Below, one piece after another: positions 32,470 to 48,009 of a stretch of DNA of 64,000 bases (position 1 is its first letter; the number at the start of each line of letters is the position of its first letter). A program made the translations under genes and the position numbers. The notes beneath the pieces were generated by a model. That model had not been told where the DNA came from. It was given only the letters and a program-made list of their open reading frames with translations, and ran no database searches. The DNA comes from an uncultured delta proteobacterium (GTDB lineage Bacteria > Myxococcota_A > Polyangia > Polyangiales > Polyangiaceae): positions 5,440,001-5,504,000 of the forward strand of contig CAWAIF010000003.1 of assembly GCA_963782055.1 (NCBI GenBank). The letters are read 5' to 3'.

Positions 32470-32632
32470 GAAGAGGCTCCTTGAAAGGACGGGCGCACGC
32501 TGGTCGGTCGCTCCACCGAACGCGGGGGGGAGCGGTCCGCCAGCCGGGTTGATCTTGGAGGATCGGCGTGCGGTTGCAAGAGAATTGAGGTCGTTGACGC
32601 GCTGAGCCAGCCCTGTTTCCGGGACGGGCAGG

Positions 32633-32705
32633 CGCCCCCGAGACGATTCGAACGTCCGACCAACGGTTTAGGAAACCGCTGCTCTATCCTCTGAGCTACG
32701 GGGGC
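32633..32705 (-). tRNA. tRNA-Arg(CCT), canonical
   Basis: GCCCCCG TA GCTC AGAGGATA GAGC A GCGGT TT-CCT-AA ACCGT TGGTC GGACG TTCGAAT CGTCT CGGGGGC G; full cloverleaf, CCA not encoded. Confidence 0.97.
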
Positions 32706-32865
32706 CGAAAAGGGCGCGGAGCATGCCACAGGGGCGCCTGGCGGCCAACCTGGACGGACGCCCGGCGCTTGCGCGACTGACCGGCGCCGGCCGCGGGGTG
32801 CCGCGCCGGCCTGCGTGATATCACCAGTGCGCACCCGGCTGGCGGGCTGCGGAATCGAAGGCTGC

Positions 32866-38991: not shown

Positions 38992-39016
38992 GATGGGCTC
39001 ATCATAGCGCTCTTTG

Positions 39017-39100
39017 CGGAAGGAAGAGGACTCGCACCCCACGCGGAGACCGCGCGCGCTGTTTTCGAGACAGGCCCGACGCTTGGTCGGTTTTCCTTCC
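39017..39100 (-). tRNA. Non-canonical tRNA-Ser(CGA)-like gene
   Basis: GGAAGGA AAA CCGAC-CAAGC-GTCGG GC CTGT CT-CGA-AA ACAG CGCG CGCGG-TCT-CCGCG T GGGG TGCGAGT CCTC T TCCTTCC G. Perfect 7-bp acceptor, G73, long variable arm; atypical A8, 5-bp D-stem, T-loop TGCGAGT, one terminal mismatch in each of the anticodon and T stems. Confidence 0.75.
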
Positions 39101-39139: not shown

Positions 39140-39643
39140 TCACGCGCAGAACACCTGCCACGGGGCGGGGACGGTGGCGGGGTCGACCTGCAGCGCCGTC
39201 GTCGCCGGCAGCCACGAGGGCTTCACCGGCTTGGAGAGCAGGCGCATGTGCGCCTCCTCCGGCGTGCGGCCGCCCTTCCTGTCGTTGCAGGCGCGGCACG
39301 CGGTCACGATGTTCGTCCAGTCCGTCGGGCCTCCGCGGGCGCGGGGCACGACGTGGTCGTAGGTGAGCTCGCGCATCGCCCGGCGGGCGCCGCAGTACTG
39401 GCAGCGGAAGGCGTCGCGGGTGAAGACGTTCAGCCGCGAGAAGCGGACCGTCCGCCGCACCGGCACGTGGCCGCGCGTCAGCCGCACCACCGCGGGCGCC
39501 CGCACCGCGAGCGCCTGCGAGCGGATGATCTCGTCGTACTCGGCGACGACCTCGACCTTGCCGAGGAAGCTGAGCACGATCGCGCGCTGCCAGGGGATGA
39601 CCCTGTGCGGCGCCATCGCCGGCGTGAGCATGAGTGTCCGCAT
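39140..39643 (-). CDS. HNH endonuclease (McrA/HNH_5-like, zinc-binding)
   Basis: ATG 39643, 167 aa: FSRLNVFTRDAFRCQYCG, LTYDHVVPRARGG, WTNIVTACRACNDRKGGRTPEEA. Confidence 0.93.
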   Translation of the reverse strand: MRTLMLTPAMAPHRVIPWQRAIVLSFLGKVEVVAEYDEIIRSQALAVRAPAVVRLTRGHVPVRRTVRFSRLNVFTRDAFRCQYCGARRAMRELTYDHVVPRARGGPTDWTNIVTACRACNDRKGGRTPEEAHMRLLSKPVKPSWLPATTALQVDPATVPAPWQVFCA

Positions 39644-39734
39644 GACCGTTACCTTCGTCTCTTCCTCTTCACGAGGCTGCTGACGCGCGGCGCGGCTCGA
39701 GCCGGACGATGCCACCCGTCCGGGGTGGCGTCGG

Positions 39735-39806
39735 CGCCTCCGCCAAGAGTCGAACTTGGCCACCGAGCTTCGGAGGCTCGAGCCTGGATTCCGCCAGGAC
39801 GGAGGC
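39735..39806 (-). tRNA. Non-canonical tRNA-Arg(CCG)-like gene
   Basis: GCCTCCG T CCTGG-CGGAAT-CCAGG CT CGAGC CT-CCG-AA GCTCG GTGG CCAAG TTCGACT CTTGG CGGAGGC G. All four stems pair perfectly; atypical 5-bp D-stem with 6-nt loop; CCA not encoded. Confidence 0.85.
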
Positions 39807-39868
39807 CTGCGTCCACGGGTCCACGCGCCCTTCGGGTCGTGGGCCGGCCTTCGGCCGGACCTCGTGTG

Positions 39869-39896
39869 GACGCCATCGGCGACGCCGTCCTGACGC
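39869..39896 (-). promoter_or_regulatory. Putative ECF-sigma-type promoter/regulatory motif (copy 1) upstream of the tRNA-Arg/HNH/tRNA-Ser unit
   Basis: Minus strand GCGTCAGGACG-G-CGT-C-GCC-GATGG-CGTC, i.e. CGTCAGG-N16-CGTC; same motif and spacing as 47900-47927. Confidence 0.55.
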
Positions 39897-39947
39897 CGGT
39901 GTTGCCTGCGAGAGACGCGAGGCGTGGGCTGCCGGTAGAGTGATCCC

Positions 39948-41117
39948 ATGCGGTTGGTGCGAAGGGGCCTCGTCGCGACCGGCGTTCTGGTCGCCGCTGG
40001 CGCGGCGGCGTGCTCGGTGCTCACGCCGCTGGACGACCTCACGCAGGGCTACGACGCTGGCGCCGACTCGCCCGCGGCGCCGCGCTGCGAGGGCGGCCTC
40101 GCCGCGTGCAACGGCGCGTGCGTCGACCTGTCCTCTGACGGCCGCAACTGCGGGCGCTGCGGCCACGACTGCGTCGGTGGAGGGTGCTCGGCGTCGGCGT
40201 GCCTGCCCCTGACAATCGCCACCGGCCAGCACTCGCCCTTCGGCATCGCGGTGGACGCGACGCGCGTGTACTGGGCGAACAACGACTACAAGGCCTCCTT
40301 CGCGAGCTGTCCCATCACGGGGTGCGCGGACGGCGGAGTCACCACGCTCCTCGACAACCAGGATCTCCCGGCCGACGTCTTCGTATCTGGCGGCAAGCTC
40401 TACATGACCGACTACGGTGTCAGCGGCGACGCGGGCGGACCGGGGCTGGTGCTCTCCTGCGATCCCACCAACTGCGCGGCCACGCTGGCCACGATCACCT
40501 CCACGACGCCCGACAACCCCGTGGCCGTCGTGGCGGACAAGAGCTCGGTGTTCTGGACCAACGCCAAGGACGGGACCATCGGCACGTGCAGCGCGATCGG
40601 GTGCGTCTCGCCCGGCACCTTCGCGAAGGACAAGGGCGGTGGGCCGTGGTACGGCCTCGCGATCGCGGGCAACGGCGTGTACTGGACGAGCGACGTGCCC
40701 GACGCCGGCGCGGTGAACCGCTGCGACGTCGGCGGGTGCGCCGCGCCGACGCTCGTCTCGAGCAGCCCCGGCCGCCCGTTCGACCTCGCCGTCTTCGGGG
40801 ACTCGGTCTACTGGACCACCGGCGCCGGCGGCCAGGTCCTTCGCTGTCCGCTCGCCGGCTGCAGCACGCCCCAGATCTTCGCCGACAACCAGGCGGCGCC
40901 GGCGGGCATCGCCGCCGACGCCTCCGGCGTCTACTGGTTGAACCAGGCTTCCGGCACCGTGCTGCGCTGCGACCTGCAGGGCTGCGGCGCGAACGGGCCG
41001 GCGGTGCTCGCGGGCGGTCAGGGCGCGCCATGGGAGATCGTGCTCGACGCCACCAGCCTCTACTGGGGAGACTCCGCGAGCGCGGACGGGCGCGTCATGC
41101 GCCTCGCGAAGCCGTGA
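39948..41117 (+). CDS. Lipoprotein with myxobacterial Cys-rich module and YWTD-like beta-propeller
   Basis: Lipobox AAAC; CNGACVDLSSDGRNCGRCGHDC; about seven repeats of P..IA.D...VYW(T/A). Confidence 0.85.
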   Translation: MRLVRRGLVATGVLVAAGAAACSVLTPLDDLTQGYDAGADSPAAPRCEGGLAACNGACVDLSSDGRNCGRCGHDCVGGGCSASACLPLTIATGQHSPFGIAVDATRVYWANNDYKASFASCPITGCADGGVTTLLDNQDLPADVFVSGGKLYMTDYGVSGDAGGPGLVLSCDPTNCAATLATITSTTPDNPVAVVADKSSVFWTNAKDGTIGTCSAIGCVSPGTFAKDKGGGPWYGLAIAGNGVYWTSDVPDAGAVNRCDVGGCAAPTLVSSSPGRPFDLAVFGDSVYWTTGAGGQVLRCPLAGCSTPQIFADNQAAPAGIAADASGVYWLNQASGTVLRCDLQGCGANGPAVLAGGQGAPWEIVLDATSLYWGDSASADGRVMRLAKP

Positions 41118-41163
41118 CCGGCCACGATTGACCCGCCCGCCCGCGGGGTCCGATAGTCAGAGG

Positions 41164-42450
41164 ATGCGCCGACTGCTGCTCTTCCTCGTCCCGATCACCC
41201 TCGTCGCGGGCTGCAAGAAGCACCCGCCGCCTGTGGCCACGCACGACCCGGCAGCCCCGGCGTCAGCGCGCTCGTCGTCGGCCGCGTCCGCGTCGGCGGC
41301 GAAGCCGAAGCCGGCGGCGCCGCGCCCCGTTCCCTCGCAGACGTGCACGCTCGACCCGCCACGAGGCGTTGTGGTCACGGCTTCCGGTCACGGCGGCTAC
41401 GACCACGACATCGCCGCGTCGAAGGCCGGGGTGGTCGTCGGGTGGCTCGAGTCGGTGCCCTCGAAGGACATCCCCGACTACTCCGCGCGCGTCGAGATGG
41501 TGCGCGCGTTCGACGCGTCGCTCGTCCCGGCGGGTCCGCCCGACGAGATCGCGCACGACGATCCGAGCGGCGGCTTCATCACCGCGGTCGCGCCCTGGGC
41601 GAACGACGGCACGCTCGGGACGGGGACGTGTCAGTTTGCCGCGGAGGCGAGCGACCTCGAGTGCAGCGTGGACCGGCTGAAGGGCAAGACGCTGGGCGCC
41701 TTCGAGGTCAAGCCCTTCGACACGCCGCCGGGGGATCACGTCGCGGTCGCGGCGGTGGGCGCGAAGGCCGTGCTCCTCCACAGCTACTGCAGCATCGTGG
41801 AGTCCTTCGCGACCAGCGAGGACGCGTCGCACGAGCTCAGGGGCGGCAGCGAGGACGATCACTACTGCGAGGGCAACGCCGGGGTCGACGTCCTCGCGGT
41901 CACGGCCACCACGGGGGGCCACGCCTTCGGCGCCTGGCGGCGCAAGGGGGTCATCGAGGGTCGGGAGATCGCCCCGGACGGCAAGCCGTCGGGGAAGGTC
42001 GTCAGGCTCAGCGCGCCGGGCCGGATGGTGGGGGCGCCAACGGTCCGCTGGGACGGCACGCAGGCGATCGCCGCGTACGCGTCGCGGGCGAAGGCGAGCG
42101 ACCCGTGGAAGATCACCTTCGCGAAGTGGAAGCCCGGCGCGACGGTGGTGCGCGCGGCGGTCGACACCGGCGCCGAGCCGGCGATGGCCCCCGCGCTCGC
42201 CGCCACCTCCGACCCGGCGTGCGTGCTGATGTCGTGGACGGAGGGCCGCGGCCACGGCACGCGCGGCCATGCCGCCCACGTCTGCGCCGACGCCCTGGTC
42301 CAGGCGAGCAAGGTCGACGTCTCCGGCGCGGGCATGGAGGCGGGTGACACCGAGCTGGCGGCCGCGCCCAACGGGGCGTACGTGGTCTGGCAGGAGGTGC
42401 CGGCGAAGGGCCCCGCGGACCTGCGCGTCGCGCGGCTGCGCTGCAGGTAG
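41164..42450 (+). CDS. Hypothetical lipoprotein
   Basis: MRRLLLFLVPITLVAGC lipobox, Pro/Ala/Ser linker, beta-rich repeats ending in V.W.E. Confidence 0.7.
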   Translation: MRRLLLFLVPITLVAGCKKHPPPVATHDPAAPASARSSSAASASAAKPKPAAPRPVPSQTCTLDPPRGVVVTASGHGGYDHDIAASKAGVVVGWLESVPSKDIPDYSARVEMVRAFDASLVPAGPPDEIAHDDPSGGFITAVAPWANDGTLGTGTCQFAAEASDLECSVDRLKGKTLGAFEVKPFDTPPGDHVAVAAVGAKAVLLHSYCSIVESFATSEDASHELRGGSEDDHYCEGNAGVDVLAVTATTGGHAFGAWRRKGVIEGREIAPDGKPSGKVVRLSAPGRMVGAPTVRWDGTQAIAAYASRAKASDPWKITFAKWKPGATVVRAAVDTGAEPAMAPALAATSDPACVLMSWTEGRGHGTRGHAAHVCADALVQASKVDVSGAGMEAGDTELAAAPNGAYVVWQEVPAKGPADLRVARLRCR

Positions 42451-42545
42451 TACACCGGCCACCTCGACCGGGACCTGTCAATGATTCCGACACCTTCGCG
42501 ACGCGCCGGGGCCTAGCCGCATCGAAGGCCGTGTGATACCTTCGT

Positions 42546-42574
42546 TCGCAAAGTGAATCTTCGTTCACCTGCGA
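42546..42574. promoter_or_regulatory. Palindromic operator-like site upstream of the emrA-like gene
   Basis: TCGCA-AA-GTGAA-TCTTCG-TTCAC-C-TGCGA nested inverted repeat about 75 nt before the ATG. Confidence 0.4.
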
Positions 42575-42646
42575 TCTTCGCGGCGCCGCGCACCGTCCGA
42601 GCGCCCGCCTGACGGCACGAGCGAGGGGTCCCAAGGAGACCACTGC

Positions 42647-43883
42647 ATGACGACCGCGAACTCAGAGACGCTCCCGGCCCACACCGCGGAGAAGGGGGAG
42701 GCCCCCGCCGCTCCAGCGAAGAAGCGGAGCACGCGGCCGTACATCATCCTCGGCACCATCATCGCGGTGGGCCTCGTCGGCTACGGCATCTTCTCCGCGG
42801 CCACGCGAGGCCATCAGTCGACCGACGACGCGCAGGTGGACGCCAACGTGGTGCCCGTCTCCGCCCGCGTGGGCGGCCAGGTCTTCAAGGTACTCGTCGG
42901 CGACAACGAGCCGGTCAAGAAGGACCAGCCCATCGTCCAGATCGACAAGTCGGACTACCAGAATCCGGCTCAAGCAGGCCCAGGCCGAGCAGGCCGCGGC
43001 CGAGGCCCAGGCGGCGGCCGCCGACGCGCAGGTGCTCATCGTCGCGGCCACCTCCAAAGGCGGGCTGTCGGCGGCGAAGGCGCTGGTCAGCGGCTCGGCC
43101 ACTTCGGTCAGCTCGGCGGCCGCACAGATCGCGTCGGCCCGGGCGTCGCTCGCCCGCGCGCAGGCGGAGGACTCCCGCGCCCAGACGGATCTCGCCCGCG
43201 CCCAGTCGCTCCGCAAGGACGACGCCATCCCGCAGGCGCAGCTCGACACCGCGCGCGCCAACGCCGCGGCGTCCAGCGCCGCCGTCGCGCAGGCGCAGGC
43301 GCAGCTCTCCGCAGCGGAGGAGTCGAAGAGCGCCGCCCAGACGCGCGTGACCGAGGCGAAGGGTCGCCTGGAGCAGAGCACGCCGGTGGACGCCCAGCTC
43401 GCCGCCGCCAAGGCCAACGCCGACCTCGCCCACGCCCGCGCGGACGCCGCCAAGCAGGCGGTGGAGCTCGCCAAGCAGCAGCTCTCGTACACCACGATCG
43501 TCGCCCCGGCCGATGGCGTCCTCTCCAAGCTCGCGGTGCGCGAGGGCCAGCTCGTGCAGCCCGGCAGCCAGATCGTGAGCGTGGTGCCCTCCGCCACCTA
43601 CGTCGTCGCCAACTTCAAGGAGACGCAGGTCGGGCAGATGCAGAAGGGCCAGCACGCAGAGATCGAGGTGGACGCCTACCCCGGCCGCAAGTTCGAGGGC
43701 GTGGTGGAGTCCACGTCCCCCGGCACCGGCGCCCGCTTCTCGCTCATGCCGCCGGACAACGCGTCAGGCAACTTCGTCAAGGTCGTGCAGCGCGTCCCGG
43801 TGAAGATCGCCTGGTCGAACCTGCCGCCGGACGTGCACATGGCGGCGGGTCTGTCGGCGGACGTGACCGTCCTCACTCGCTAA
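42647..43883 (+). pseudogene. EmrA/HlyD-family membrane fusion protein with a one-base frameshift (assembly error or pseudogene)
   Basis: N-half STDDAQVDANVVPVSARVGGQV (ORF 42647) and C-half VVANFKETQV...PPDNASGNFVKVVQRVPVKI (ORF 43032) join if one A at 42962-42963 is removed (CAG A ATC CGG CTC AAG). Confidence 0.85.
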
Positions 43884-43896
43884 CCCCAAGGTGCTC

Positions 43897-45444
43897 ATGA
43901 AAGGTCCCCATCGGCTCGGCGGTCGTGCGCTCGGCGCCGCCGCGATGCTGCTCTCGCTCGCCGCGGCCCCGGCCGCGCTCGCACAGGCTCCGGCGACCGG
44001 TGCGCCCCGTCCCGACACGGGCGCCGGGACGCCCTCGCCGGCCGGCACCGGTAGCGCGACGCCGCCGCCGGCCGACACCGGTAGCGCGACGCCGCCGCCG
44101 GCCGACACCGGTAGCGCGACGCCGCCGCCGGCCGACACCGGTAGCGCGACGCCGCCGCCGGCCGACACCGGTAGCGCGACGCCGCCGCCGGCCGCGCCTC
44201 CACCCGCGGCCGGTCCGGTCCTCGCCTTGAGCGACTGCGTCTCGTACGCGCTCGCGCACAACCCCGACGTGCTCACCAGCGACAAGCAGGTGGACGAGGC
44301 GCGCGCGTCCCGCGCGGAGACCGCGGGCCACTTCGGGCCGAAGGTCCAGCTCGACGGCAACCTGCAGATCTGGGACGGCCCCTTCCAGATCAACTTCGGC
44401 GGCGGGTCGATCCAGGTGCGCGACCAGTTCACCTGGACCGCATCCGCTTCGCTGATCCAGCCGCTGACGCCGCTCTTCGTGATCTACGACGAGTACAAGC
44501 TGCGCGACTACGGCGTGGACGTGGCGCAGATCCAGAAGAACGCCACGCGCCGCGACGTGGCGTTTCGCGTGGCCGAGGCGTACCTGCGGCTGCTGGAGGC
44601 CACCCGCCTCTCCAGCGTGGCGACCACCTCGGTGGACGAGCTCATGGGACAGCAGCGCCAGGCGGAGTCCCTGCACCAGAACGGCGTCATCGGCAAGAAC
44701 GACCTCCTGCGCGCGGTGCTCGCCGTCGCCAACGCGCGTCAGCTCGTGATCCAGTCGCGCGGCATGGTCACCCTCGCGCAGGGGCGGCTGGAGATGCTGA
44801 TGGGGCGGCGTCACGACGCGCCGTTCGAACCGGTGCCCTACACCAACGCGCCACCTCCGCTCGAGCCGTCGACGGTCGCCGACGCCGAGACGCAGGCCGC
44901 GACGAAGCGGATGGAGCTGGTCTCGCTGGACCGGCGGATCGACCAGGCGGGCATGGCCCTCTCCGTCGCCAAGCTGAAGCTCCTGCCGCAGGTGAACGCC
45001 ATGGGCACCTACCAGCACTTCGACGGCTCCGCGTTCCAGCAGCACGACGCCGCGTTCGTCGGGCTCACGGGCACGTGGGACATCTGGGACTGGGGCACCA
45101 CCTGGAACGGCATCAAGGAGGCGCGCGCGCGGAAGGACCAGGCGCAGCTCGCGCGGACCAAGCTGGAGGACGAGGTCCGCCTGGAGGCGCGCCAGGCGTT
45201 CGTCAACGCGAACACGGCGAGGGACGCGCTGGCGGTGGCCAAGACCGCCGTGACCCAGGCGGAGGAGAACTACCGCATCGTGACCAAGCGGTTCCAGGCC
45301 GCCGCCGGCACCTCCTTCGACGTCGTCGACGCCGAGACGCTCCTGACCCGTGCCCGCGCCCAGGTGGAGACGGCGACGTACGACTACCTCATCGCCCGCT
45401 CTGCCCTGCAGCGGGCGACCGGGGCGACGACGCCGCGCCTCTGA
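43897..45444 (+). CDS. TolC-family outer-membrane efflux protein
   Basis: Signal peptide, repeat linker, LSDCVSYALAHNPDV, VAEAYLRLL, LLPQVN, WDIWDWG, AEENYRIVTKRF..GTSFDVVDAE. Confidence 0.9.
   Translation: MKGPHRLGGRALGAAAMLLSLAAAPAALAQAPATGAPRPDTGAGTPSPAGTGSATPPPADTGSATPPPADTGSATPPPADTGSATPPPADTGSATPPPAAPPPAAGPVLALSDCVSYALAHNPDVLTSDKQVDEARASRAETAGHFGPKVQLDGNLQIWDGPFQINFGGGSIQVRDQFTWTASASLIQPLTPLFVIYDEYKLRDYGVDVAQIQKNATRRDVAFRVAEAYLRLLEATRLSSVATTSVDELMGQQRQAESLHQNGVIGKNDLLRAVLAVANARQLVIQSRGMVTLAQGRLEMLMGRRHDAPFEPVPYTNAPPPLEPSTVADAETQAATKRMELVSLDRRIDQAGMALSVAKLKLLPQVNAMGTYQHFDGSAFQQHDAAFVGLTGTWDIWDWGTTWNGIKEARARKDQAQLARTKLEDEVRLEARQAFVNANTARDALAVAKTAVTQAEENYRIVTKRFQAAAGTSFDVVDAETLLTRARAQVETATYDYLIARSALQRATGATTPRL
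44041..44190 (+). repeat. 30-bp tandem repeat, five copies, in frame within tolC
   Basis: GCCGACACCGGTAGCGCGACGCCGCCGCCG x5 (first copy has one mismatch), encoding ADTGSATPPP. Confidence 0.95.
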
Positions 45445-45452
45445 GCCGCGTT

Positions 45453-45540
45453 CCCCCCCCTGTCCGCCCCTGTCCGCCGTCCCCTGTCCCGCCTGTCCGC
45501 CCTGTCCCGCCTGTCCCGCCTGTCCCCCCTCCCTGTCCCC
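45453..45540. repeat. Degenerate CCTGTCC tandem array (8 copies, mostly 9-10 nt period)
   Basis: TGTCC starts at 45461, 45471, 45485, 45494, 45503, 45512, 45521 and 45534 in a C-rich, A-free tract. Confidence 0.85.
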
Positions 45541-45640
45541 GGACACCCAACGTCGAAGTGCGAGGGTACTTGCAGTGCGACGTTTCCCCTGAAATCTGCA
45601 GGGAGGGGGGGGTGGCATGGGGGGTGCTCTGGGGGTGTGG

Positions 45641-46207
45641 ATGGACCCTGTGTTCTTCACGATCAAGCGGGCCTATTACGCGACGCTGAAGCTGACGCGG
45701 CGGGCGCTGGCGGCGCTCGGGCTGACGTCCGCGCGCTACGATCTGCTCGACGCGCTGTACCGACTGGGCACGCGCACCAGTCCCTTCCAGAGCGACCTGC
45801 GGCGGGCGCTCGGGGTCGCGCGGTCCACCATCAGCGTGATGATGCGAGCGCTCGAGCGGATCGGGCTGGTGAGACGGCGGCGTAGCGGGCGGGACATGCT
45901 CGTCGAGCTCACGCCGGAGGGGCGGCGGTGCGTACGGAGGGCGTTCTTCGGGCTGGTGCTGGTGGGGCACGTCAGCGCGGCACTGGACGGGGCGCTCGCG
46001 CCCGGGGGGCGTCGGTGGCCGGCCGCCCGCGCGTGCGCGCGGGCGCGCCGACACCTCGAGGTGCTCTGCCTGCGCATTCGCGACGGATTCGGCGACGACG
46101 CCGAGCTGGACCGCCTCGGCAGCGCCTGGTGGTGCCGCGAGCAGGACCGGCTGCTCCGGCTGCGCCTGCGCCGCGAGCGGCGCCAGGGGAGCCTGGACGG
46201 CCCGTGA
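45641..46207 (+). CDS. MarR-family winged-helix regulator
   Basis: LGLTSARYDLL, QSDLRRALGVARSTISVMMRALERIGLVRR, VELTPEGR. Confidence 0.8.
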   Translation: MDPVFFTIKRAYYATLKLTRRALAALGLTSARYDLLDALYRLGTRTSPFQSDLRRALGVARSTISVMMRALERIGLVRRRRSGRDMLVELTPEGRRCVRRAFFGLVLVGHVSAALDGALAPGGRRWPAARACARARRHLEVLCLRIRDGFGDDAELDRLGSAWWCREQDRLLRLRLRRERRQGSLDGP

Positions 46208-46327
46208 CGTAACCACCTGCGTGACGCCGCGCCGCTCCACTTCGGCGCGTCGACGACGGTCGCGAGCCGGGGCTGGTCTGCCGAGCCCGAGGACCTTACC
46301 GTCGAGACTTCGACCGGAGGTGTCCCG

Positions 46328-47761
46328 ATGCTCAAGCCGCGCTACCCCTACTACCTCGCCAACCACGCGCTGGAGCCCAACGCCGACCTGGTCGTGCACG
46401 ACAAGTACACCGGCGAGGTGGCCACGCGCGTCGCGCTCGCCGACGCTCCGGTGATCGAGGCGTCGATCGCCGCCGCCGCGCGCGCGGCGAAGGCGATGCG
46501 CGAGCTGCGTCCCTACGACCGGCAGAGGGTCCTCGAGCACTGCGTGGCGCGCTTCCGCGAGCGCGCCGACGAGCTGGCGCTCGCCCTGTGCATCGAGGCG
46601 GGCAAGCCCATCCGCGACGCGCGCGGCGAGGTGGCTCGCCTGGTGGATACCTTCAAGGTCGCCGCCGAGGAAGCGGTGCGCATCGACGGCCAGGTGCTCA
46701 ACCTGGAGATCTCCCCGCGGGCGAAGGGCTTCCGCGGCTTCACGAAGCGCGTGCCGCTCGGGCCGTGCTCCTTCATCACGCCCTTCAACTTCCCCCTCAA
46801 CCTGGTGGCGCACAAGGTCGCGCCGGCGATCGCCGCGGGCTGCCCGTTCGTGCTCAAGCCTTCCGAGCGCACACCCGTCGGCGCGCTCATCGTCGGCGAG
46901 GTCCTCGCCGAGACCGACCTGCCGGAGGGCGCCTTCTCGGTGCTGCCCGCGCTCGTGCACGACGTGGGGCCCTTCGTGGAAGACGACCGGCTTAAGCTGC
47001 TCTCCTTCACCGGCTCGGGCAAGGTGGGCTGGGACCTGAAGGCGCGCGCCGGCCGCAAGAAGGTGGTGCTGGAGCTCGGCGGCAACGCTGCGTGCGTCGT
47101 CGACGCCGACCAGAAGGACCGGCTGGACTTCGTCGTCGAGCGCATCGTCTTCGGCGGCTACTACCAGTCGGGGCAAAGCTGCATCTCGGTGCAGCGCGTC
47201 CTCGTGCACGAGAGCCTTTACGACGCCGTGCGCGAGCGCCTGGTGGCCAAGGTGTCCGGCCTGGTCGCCGGTAACCCGCGCGACGAGACCACCTTCCTCG
47301 GCCCGATGATCGACGAGGCGGCGGCGGCGCGACTGGAGGGCTGGATCGAGAGCGCGCGGGCGCGCGGCGCGAAGGTGCTCTGCGGGGGCGGGCGCACGCG
47401 CGCCACGATCCAGGCCGCGGTGCTGGAGAACGTCCCGCGCGACGAGCCGCTTTGGGCGCAAGAGGCCTTCGGCCCGGTCACGGTCCTCGAGCGCTTCTCC
47501 GACTACGAGGACGCGCTGGTCACGGTGAACGACAGCCGGTACGGCCTGCAGGCGGGCGTGTTCACCGACAGCCTCTCGCACGCGACGCGCGCCTGGGACG
47601 AGCTCGAGGTGGGCGGCGTCGTGGTGGGCGACGTGCCGAGCTTCCGCGTCGACAACATGCCCTACGGCGGCGTGAAGGGCTCCGGCCTCGGGCGCGAGGG
47701 CATCCGCTGGGCGATCGAGGACATGACCGAGCCCCGGCTGCTGGTCATCCGCGATCGGTGA
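46328..47761 (+). CDS. Aldehyde dehydrogenase family protein
   Basis: ITPFNFPLNL, LKPSE, FTGSGKVG, LELGGNA, GQSCISVQR, EAFGPV, PYGGVKGSGLGREG; RBS GGAGG. Confidence 0.96.
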   Translation: MLKPRYPYYLANHALEPNADLVVHDKYTGEVATRVALADAPVIEASIAAAARAAKAMRELRPYDRQRVLEHCVARFRERADELALALCIEAGKPIRDARGEVARLVDTFKVAAEEAVRIDGQVLNLEISPRAKGFRGFTKRVPLGPCSFITPFNFPLNLVAHKVAPAIAAGCPFVLKPSERTPVGALIVGEVLAETDLPEGAFSVLPALVHDVGPFVEDDRLKLLSFTGSGKVGWDLKARAGRKKVVLELGGNAACVVDADQKDRLDFVVERIVFGGYYQSGQSCISVQRVLVHESLYDAVRERLVAKVSGLVAGNPRDETTFLGPMIDEAAAARLEGWIESARARGAKVLCGGGRTRATIQAAVLENVPRDEPLWAQEAFGPVTVLERFSDYEDALVTVNDSRYGLQAGVFTDSLSHATRAWDELEVGGVVVGDVPSFRVDNMPYGGVKGSGLGREGIRWAIEDMTEPRLLVIRDR

Positions 47762-47899
47762 GCGCCTCGCGCGGTGGACGGTCAGCGCCACGCGGCAGGA
47801 TCGCGCGGCGGGACCTCTCCGGCGGCGTGTCGAGGGACGCAAGAAGGAGCGCCGCGAGGCGAAGGACCATGAGGTGCGGACGCGACGCCGTCGCGGAGC

Positions 47900-47927
47900 G
47901 CGTCAGGACGCCGTGGCCCCGCTCGTC
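47900..47927 (+). promoter_or_regulatory. Putative ECF-sigma-type promoter/regulatory motif (copy 2) upstream of the tRNA-Cys-like gene
   Basis: GCGTCAGGACG-C-CGT-G-GCC-CCGCT-CGTC (CGTCAGG-N16-CGTC), ending 10 nt before the tRNA-like 5' end. Confidence 0.55.
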
Positions 47928-47937
47928 TCCAGCCGAC

Positions 47938-48009
47938 GAGCCGGTTCTCTGACGAGGAGCGCGGTCTGCAACACCGTGCGCGAGGGTCTGATTCCCTCCC
48001 GGCTCTCCA
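47938..48009 (+). tRNA. Non-canonical tRNA-Cys(GCA)-like gene with encoded CCA
   Basis: GAGCCGG TTCTC-TGAC-GAGGA GC GCGGT CT-GCA-AC ACCGT GCGC GAGGG TCTGATT CCCTC CCGGCTC T CCA. Perfect acceptor and T stems, U73 (Cys identity); minimal D-arm and T-loop TCTGATT. Confidence 0.8.

Follow-up and report, generated by a model that had tools for sequence, protein, structure and literature searches.

The RtcR-sigma54 RNA repair operon brings rtcBA together with rsr and Y RNAs under sigma54 and a CARF activator. In Anabaena sp. PCC 7120, translational stress induces the tRNA array of the trn operon together with an HNH endonuclease gene and rtcB, with TrcR acting as the repressor (excerpts of PMC8421152 and PMC10272220, the latter of which also mentions RtcR), and 23 of 26 array tRNAs are charged (PMC8421152, same excerpts). 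For extracytoplasmic function (ECF) sigma factors, promoter prediction rests as standard on autoregulation (PMC7826278, in part). Here, we have analyzed a stretch of 64,000 nucleotides (the window) of contig CAWAIF010000003.1 from an uncultured delta proteobacterium of the Polyangiaceae, in which a preliminary description had noticed the same motif upstream of two atypical tRNA genes on opposite strands. Our results suggest that this motif is probably the promoter (-35 and -10 boxes) of a single autoregulated ECF-type sigma factor, which would drive a translation-maintenance regulon.

A two-box motif upstream of tRNA genes

GCGTCAGGACG occurs at 39896-39886 (-) and 47900-47910 (+) of the window. 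At both sites CGTCAGG is followed by CGTC after 16 nt, and each site is oriented towards a tRNA gene that is called by ARAGORN and has no Rfam RF00005 score. Thus, the letters, coordinates and atypical tRNA neighbours given in the preliminary description were right. The sites, and the canonical tRNA gene of the window that proved to belong with them, are as follows.

39869..39894 (-): site 1, predicted ECF promoter; -35 box GTCAGG at 39894-39889, -10 box CGTC at 39872-39869, 17-nt spacer after GTCAG
47902..47927 (+): site 2, predicted ECF promoter; -35 box GTCAGG at 47902-47907, -10 box CGTC at 47924-47927, tRNA gene 10 nt further on
32757..32781 (-): third window site, GTCAG-N16-CGTC, 51 nt upstream of the canonical tRNA-Arg(CCT) gene
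32631..32705 (-): canonical tRNA-Arg(CCT) gene; 64.7 bits in Rfam, also called by ARAGORN

An independent position weight matrix (PWM) gave scores of 16.9 and 14.7 for sites 1 and 2, respectively. The third site is one base shorter and precedes a gene before which the motif had been reported absent; the canonical tRNA-Arg(CCT) is therefore predicted to be a member of the same regulon. The claim of an identical 11-nt core also had to be revised. In the window, the 11-mer has two matches where 0.27 are expected (a count of two occurred in 5 of 100 shuffles), and the bipartite form two against 0.21 expected (3 of 100 shuffles), which is only modestly above chance. Genome-wide, the 11-mer has 21 matches, and the full pattern of the preliminary description just the two window sites. 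The spacers of these two sites have 10 of 17 letters in common, a likeness reached by only 7 of 171 site pairs. Thus, the supposed core consists of the -35 box and largely incidental spacer, only the two boxes being conserved, and the extra likeness may well be chance.

The genome that holds the window (G000; 7.58 Mb, ∼72% GC and 97% complete) was scanned on the basis of gene calls made by our own gene caller, which left 13.8% of it intergenic. The motif core is [G/T]TCAG(G)-N16/17-CGTC. For GTCAG-Nx-CGTC, 30 of 59 matches were intergenic at x=16 and 28 of 109 at x=17, whereas control spacers within the range of 10-24 gave 6-22 intergenic matches each. Within 260 nt upstream, [GTA]TCAG-N16/17-CGT[CA] was found in sense orientation at 16 of 49 tRNA genes, in antisense orientation at none of the 49, and with seven control spacers at 0-2 of the 49; it also preceded 53 of 5841 protein genes. 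The 49 genes were ARAGORN calls with a normal T-loop; the Arg gene at site 1 is among them, as is one call that is probably false, and one site is common to two of the genes (calls at a lowered ARAGORN threshold over the whole genome were mostly false). The matches form a spacer-specific intergenic peak with strand-specific enrichment before tRNA genes.

Of 13 strict matches, 6 had an ATG start 8-15 nt past CGTC, versus 1 of 14 control matches, and the nearest tRNA start was 10 nt after CGTC, with none closer. Such spacing would fit a -10 box with the transcription start a few bases downstream. About half of the housekeeping tRNA genes with a site have a sigma70-like promoter further down (loose pattern), and none of the atypical genes, treated below as array relics, has one. 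The ECF-type promoter suggested in the preliminary description is supported by the two-box form, the spacer of 16/17 nt and the CGTC box.

The candidate sigma factor and its predicted regulon

Among the 41 genes of G000 with a Sigma70_r2 match, one has a full-strength upstream site (G000:C3:5122740-5123405). This site scored 19.2, compared with 14.1 for the next sigma gene and at most 10.1 for the others (training range 14.2-22.3), so that the dedicated sigma factor postulated earlier has a candidate. The protein is small (221 aa; 213-252 aa among aligned homologs), lacks regions 1.1 and 3, and matches Pfam Sigma70_r2 with 24.0 bits, right at the cut-off. Its AlphaFold model (predicted local distance difference test, pLDDT, 84; predicted template modelling score, pTM, 0.50) has confident C-terminal helices. 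In a fold search with the model, the top full-length matches were ECF sigma factors (best E 3e-4), and region 2 of E. coli sigmaE was matched with a template modelling score of 0.83 by target. A family and order sample of 121 genomes contained 15 with the sigma factor, G000 included. All 32 genomes searched from the Myxococcus genus group have it, and in a phylum-wide sample its distribution is patchy (2 of 301 genomes).

The motif itself, in the form GTCAGG(A)-N-CGTC, lies upstream of the sigma orthologs at 15 of 15 loci and at 71 of 80 named loci (1-7 of 80 with control spacers), the two sets overlapping; the consensus -35 box over the 71 sites is GTCAGG(A). It should be noted that the antisense count at the 80 loci (46 of 80) is not a valid null, because a divergent motif copy was present in 6 of 11 inspected loci, where it faces phosphatase/VWA genes as far as those were identified. 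At one Myxococcus locus (L135:809-3576, minus strand), the divergent copy faces genes for an ApaH-like phosphatase and a 589-aa VWA-domain protein, which are likely MXAN_1509 and MXAN_1508.

Downstream of the sigma gene, 67 of the 80 loci encode an HxxxCxxC protein assigned to Pfam zf-HC2. This partner has 275-410 aa, with two HxxxCxxC motifs placed centrally or C-terminally behind an N-terminal domain without family match. The motif is present in all 35 aligned proteins (twice in 32), and none of the 35 has a transmembrane stretch (top 19-residue hydropathy mean 1.48). We predict that the partner is a soluble anti-sigma factor that holds the sigma factor inactive. Gene order and lengths match MXAN_1508-1511 of Myxococcus xanthus DK1622 (supplementary table of PMC6791715); by this mapping, made from order and lengths and not from alignment, the sigma factor and its partner are likely MXAN_1510 and MXAN_1511. 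MXAN_1509 has been called a diadenosine tetraphosphate hydrolase (10.1101/2020.12.14.422803, in part), and a literature search for the locus tags found no paper that names MXAN_1510 or MXAN_1511. RNA reads over the sigma promoter region of a further locus (L138; three runs, one study) were uninformative, with even coverage in both mate directions, intergenic DNA included, and no pile-up of ends. The supplement of an M. xanthus Cappable-seq study has rows only for cyclic di-GMP (c-di-GMP) genes, and none for MXAN_1509-1511 or tRNAs.

Predicted targets in G000 were named by Pfam, NCBIfam and Rfam. Strict intergenic sites lie upstream of alaS, thrS, metG, cysS, aspS and infC, as well as of mutS2, queG, an OsmC-like gene, GNAT genes and an ApaH-like phosphatase gene. 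Sites also precede the 16S rRNA gene of the rRNA operon, the transfer-messenger RNA (tmRNA) gene and a Cys/Met-metabolism gene. A relaxed -35 box (GTCCGG and similar) adds rtcB, whose site is the GTCCGG variant, and pheS, ileS, leuS and rsmI. One strict site is followed by a tRNA-like gene (G000:C3:981474-981551, plus strand; L079) with a cloverleaf, a GG D-loop, a TTCGA T-loop, CCA and a 9-nt anticodon loop; it was missed by ARAGORN and Rfam, and comparison with 200 relatives and with array tRNAs gave no homolog and no significant match, respectively. The further targets that a genome scan was expected to yield were thus recovered in part: another atypical tRNA-like gene, HNH, tmRNA and, as a variant only, rtcB, while no TROVE gene was found in G000. 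No strict intergenic site of a second HNH gene, on contig C2, turned up in the genome scans. Co-induction of atypical tRNAs and HNH, as proposed in the preliminary description, is in line with the sites before both; the predicted regulon is wider, and includes housekeeping tRNAs such as tRNA-Arg(CCT).

Some individual sites deserve mention. A second canonical tRNA-Val(GAC) gene (G000:C3:6296199-6296271, minus strand; L121) starts 11 nt after a site and has no sigma70-like promoter, and may for that reason depend on this sigma factor alone. The rtcB promoter region is found again, nearly identical, 2.2 kb upstream (G000:C3:6827288 and 6829489, minus strand), suggesting a local duplication; it surrounds a small gene pair that we take to be toxin-antitoxin-like. 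Another strong intergenic site lies at G000:C3:3575920 (plus strand; L375).

On the basis of these observations, the following mechanism might be proposed. The zinc-finger neighbour would hold the sigma factor inactive as an anti-sigma factor, and release would activate it. The freed sigma holoenzyme would bind the motif, transcription would start a few bases after CGTC, and the supply of tRNAs, synthetases, rRNA, and rescue and repair factors would rise. The sites would add an upstream promoter to housekeeping tRNA genes and would be the sole promoter evident for array relics, each surviving piece of an array that fragmented in this lineage having retained or acquired a site of its own. Of these steps, the trigger is the one of which we are least sure. 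Translation stalling or damage to tRNAs, acting for example through faster loss of a labile anti-sigma factor, is slightly favoured in view of the predicted targets, the lack of thioredoxin genes among them and the induction known for such arrays. Sensing of thiols or zinc via the HxxxCxxC motifs appears a rather unlikely trigger, and a growth-resumption programme a still more unlikely one.

The sigma factor might also be correctly identified and the system nevertheless be a SigR/RsrA-like response to thiol or zinc stress, with the translation genes as part of its output. The soluble partner with its two HxxxCxxC motifs would suit such a response, given that RsrA acts by disulfide formation (PMC4921905, in part), as would the sites before the OsmC-like gene, cysS, metG and the Cys/Met-metabolism gene. 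However, none of the four WCGPC thioredoxin genes of G000 carries a site, and tRNA, synthetase, rescue and repair genes dominate the targets. Moreover, the same arrays answer translation stress in Anabaena (excerpts of PMC8421152) and have attenuator-like leaders in relatives. We therefore consider this explanation unlikely, although it is the strongest of the alternatives.

Comparison across genomes bears on whether the sigma factor and the motif belong together. The motif was present before mutS2 in 10 of 12 genomes with the sigma factor and in none of 16 in which it was not found (two truncated loci dropped). Before the HNH gene or array leader, it was present at 11 of 11 versus 2 of 24 loci, control spacers giving 1 of 11 and 1-2 of 24; for this count, five loci whose upstream DNA was too short were left out, a further one was treated separately, and the anchor of G027 was moved from a housekeeping tRNA to HNH. 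If the motif were the promoter of another sigma factor or a transcription-factor site, and the ECF gene just one more target, its loss from mutS2 and HNH leaders where the sigma factor was not found would be hard to understand. Such a regulator could be sought among the 41 sigma-domain genes of G000; in addition, the two boxes might be viewed as a direct repeat of GTC with a spacing of two helical turns, and many sites abut a sigma70-like -35 box, as activator or repressor sites do. On the other hand, the spacer of 16/17 nt and CGTC fit ECF architecture (ECF41, TGTCACA/CGTC; PMC7826278, in part), array relics have no sigma70-like promoter, and ATG and tRNA starts cluster just past CGTC. Another regulator thus seems quite improbable.

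Several observations weigh against the promoter of an autoregulated ECF-type sigma factor as we propose it. First, the pattern [GTA]TCAG-N16/17-CGT[CA] was picked after the tRNA matches had been seen. The test was therefore repeated with a PWM derived from 61 sites upstream of sigma genes in other genomes, which gave 14 tRNA-proximal matches at spacers 16/17 versus 3 over eight control spacers; these training sites were themselves located by the same core. Second, many strict intergenic matches precede genes unrelated to translation or face convergent genes, and are probably background. The relaxed pattern gave 73 matches versus 42-64 at control spacers, so that pheS, ileS, leuS, rsmI and rtcB are each uncertain when taken singly. 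Third, some targets track the sigma factor weakly, namely thrS (4 of 10 genomes with it versus 0 of 10 without, p=0.09) and the Arg-tRNA loci (4 of 10 versus 2 of 12). Absence of the sigma factor here means that it was not found with this query, in genomes that are partly incomplete, and six of the 14 positive relatives are congeners, so that the co-occurrence counts are not independent. Fourth, Myxococcus sp. Y35 has no genome-wide excess, with 34 exact matches versus 72 for the reversed pattern. Finally, the candidate reaches 30 bits in TIGR02937 against a cut-off of 42.9 and has no Pfam region-4 match. Among the 32 matches examined in Y35 are the heads of three separate atypical-tRNA clusters, tRNA-Gln, tRNA-Leu, rtcB, an RlaP gene, a phosphatase gene and the sigma gene itself, and in the congener G004, 5 of 30 examined matches (49 in all) precede tRNAs.

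The preliminary description had also pointed to inverted repeats at both sites and suggested that the motif could instead work through the RNA. In that case, it would form a leader structure or a signal for the processing of atypical tRNAs. One further feature of the window is relevant here.

39821..39863 (-): 46-nt twin-hairpin repeat resembling repetitive extragenic palindromic (REP) elements, inserted in the site-1 leader

Both window sites indeed pair with downstream sequence in minimum free energy folds. These folds, however, are no better than those of shuffled sequences (z -0.71 and -1.08), and the site-1 inverted repeat derives from the REP-like repeat, of which G000 has 58 copies, many in tandem, and is therefore not part of the motif. 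In addition, no downstream structure is common to the motif copies before protein genes, rRNA and the sigma gene, and conservation is confined to the two boxes. The RNA-level reading is accordingly rejected as very improbable. The REP-like repeat occurs as single copies or as tandem series with at most 13 units, also upstream of tRNA-Ser(GCT) and in the rRNA spacer. Chance likeness in a genome of 72% GC, or local duplication, could be entertained from the window-level significance of just 3-5 in 100 shuffles, but is ruled out as the origin of the core motif by the strand- and spacer-specific enrichment before tRNAs and its retention before 71 of 80 sigma orthologs.

HNH and tRNA genes as relics of an array

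The two sites of the window face genes that resemble members of tRNA arrays in related bacteria. The features concerned are listed below.

39733..39806 (-): array-type tRNA-Arg(CCG), called by ARAGORN; CCA end incompletely encoded; no Rfam match
39682..39707 (-): relaxed site GTCCG-N17-CGTC, directly upstream of the unit formed by the next two features
39649..39672 (-): upstream open reading frame (uORF) of seven codons, rich in Lys/Arg, just upstream of the HNH start
39140..39643 (-): HNH endonuclease gene of the L-array type; Pfam HNH_5/HNH
39013..39100 (-): array-type tRNA-Ser(CGA), right after HNH; missed by ARAGORN
47938..48009 (+): array-type tRNA-Cys(GCA), called by ARAGORN; U73 and CCA; no Rfam match

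The tRNA-Arg(CCG) has 84% identity to an array tRNA of G047 (E ∼1e-16) and the tRNA-Ser(CGA) 81% to an array tRNA-Ser of G019 (E 4e-14). The tRNA-Cys(GCA), whose T-loop differs from that of most homologs, has 85% identity to an array tRNA-Cys of G053. For all three, the best matches are array tRNAs adjoining HNH homologs, which in relatives are embedded in same-strand arrays that reach 38 tRNAs, some of them with a TROVE/Ro60 gene. The window has no long same-strand tRNA cluster: two array tRNAs flank HNH and the third lies 8 kb off. Judged by these matches, the set is a relic of an HNH/Ro60 tRNA L-array and not an array, which agrees with the scattered remains suspected in the preliminary description.

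The relaxed site upstream of the uORF and HNH is weak taken alone, owing to the high background of the relaxed pattern; a site is likewise present in the congeners G004 and G005. Similar polybasic uORFs lie upstream of HNH in 12 of 20 loci of relatives, and such a uORF may couple HNH translation to the supply of Lys/Arg tRNAs. In relatives in which the sigma factor was not found, many arrays are headed by a sigma70-like promoter, which is followed by a leader ORF and a terminator-like hairpin for which an alternative pairing exists (11 of 24 loci by our pattern). The sequence of the leader ORF is variable, and the hairpin is conserved, ∼30-38 nt past the stop codon (L060, L062, L066, L069, L071, L073, L076 and L213; also L286 and L287). 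By their layout, these array leaders look like ribosome-controlled attenuators, presumably similar to the leaders of wblC/whiB7. In three genomes (G046, G047 and G001), an ECF-type site heads such a leader in place of the sigma70-like promoter. No attenuator-type hairpin was found in the intergenic DNA of G000.

HNH homologs lie directly beside tRNA-Arg(CCT) in four other genomes (L024, L025, L026 and L029), compared with a distance of 6.4 kb here, suggesting that this tRNA gene is an old insertion site of the array. In the congener G001 (L010), rtcB and HNH are neighbours in divergent orientation, and the motif points towards HNH.

Comparison with known systems

Autoregulated ECF sigma factors and stress-induced tRNA arrays are already known, and their combination here is new as far as we could find. 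A literature search, which missed most subscription papers, found no report of a myxobacterial ECF sigma factor with a GTCAGG/CGTC promoter over the decoding apparatus and array fragments. In the part of the ECF reclassification supplement that was covered, a search by terms gave no group with such a promoter; the sigma factor may still belong to an existing group. On a broader level we can be only tentative. In myxobacteria including M. xanthus (likely MXAN_1510/1511), the sigma/anti-sigma pair might sense in the cytoplasm that translation is failing or tRNAs are damaged, and re-supply the whole decoding apparatus, that is, housekeeping and cryptic tRNAs, synthetases, rRNA, tmRNA, MutS2 and RtcB. 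Horizontally spread arrays might be captured, have their sigma70 promoters replaced, and then fragment yet stay co-regulated. Such a system would provide a promoter, a regulon and a likely role for an unstudied sigma factor that all 32 genomes searched from the Myxococcus genus group contain. It would also be a third route to induce cryptic tRNA arrays, beside the TrcR repressor and leader attenuators, and would account for the persistence of lone atypical tRNA genes after array break-up. If true, an ECF sigma factor that gives second promoters to many tRNA genes, synthetases and rRNA would be unusual.

As we understand the RtcR-sigma54 operon, it resembles the present system in inducing RtcB and, in view of the arrays of relatives, Ro60/TROVE-linked tRNA-like RNAs. 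The G000 system differs in its ECF-type promoter and far wider translation regulon. SigR-RsrA (ECF12) of Streptomyces coelicolor is likewise an autoregulated ECF system with a soluble zinc-binding anti-sigma factor, a large regulon including ribosome-related genes and a link to translation-inhibiting antibiotics (excerpts of PMC4921905 and PMC8999054). It has another promoter, and in the present system the partner has 275-410 aa, with its two HxxxCxxC motifs placed centrally or C-terminally, and thioredoxin targets are absent (0 of 4). ECF41 shares the CGTC -10 box, a GTCA core in the -35 box, near-identical spacing and autoregulation, but its -35 box is TGTCACA instead of GTCAGG, and it controls only itself and its neighbour, as opposed to the large regulon predicted here (PMC7826278, in part). 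Furthermore, the candidate has no C-terminal extension in its 221 aa and has an adjacent zinc-finger partner. The likeness to ECF41 noted in the preliminary description is therefore not one of identity.

A close parallel is found in the cyanobacterial L-array and TrcR, where a long array of atypical tRNAs is linked to HNH, the array, HNH and rtcB are co-regulated by way of a common promoter motif, and the regulator is autoregulated (PMC8421152 and PMC10272220, in part). According to the same excerpts, TrcR is a ribbon-helix-helix repressor that acts on AT-rich direct repeats over a sigma70 -10 box. The element of G000, in which TrcR itself was not searched for, is non-repeated, GC-rich and bipartite, has -35/-10 form and tracks an ECF sigma factor. 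Its predicted regulon also takes in housekeeping tRNAs, synthetases, rRNA and MutS2, and its array is fragmented. Given the -35/-10 form of the element and its tracking of the ECF sigma factor, control here would be positive, unlike that by TrcR.

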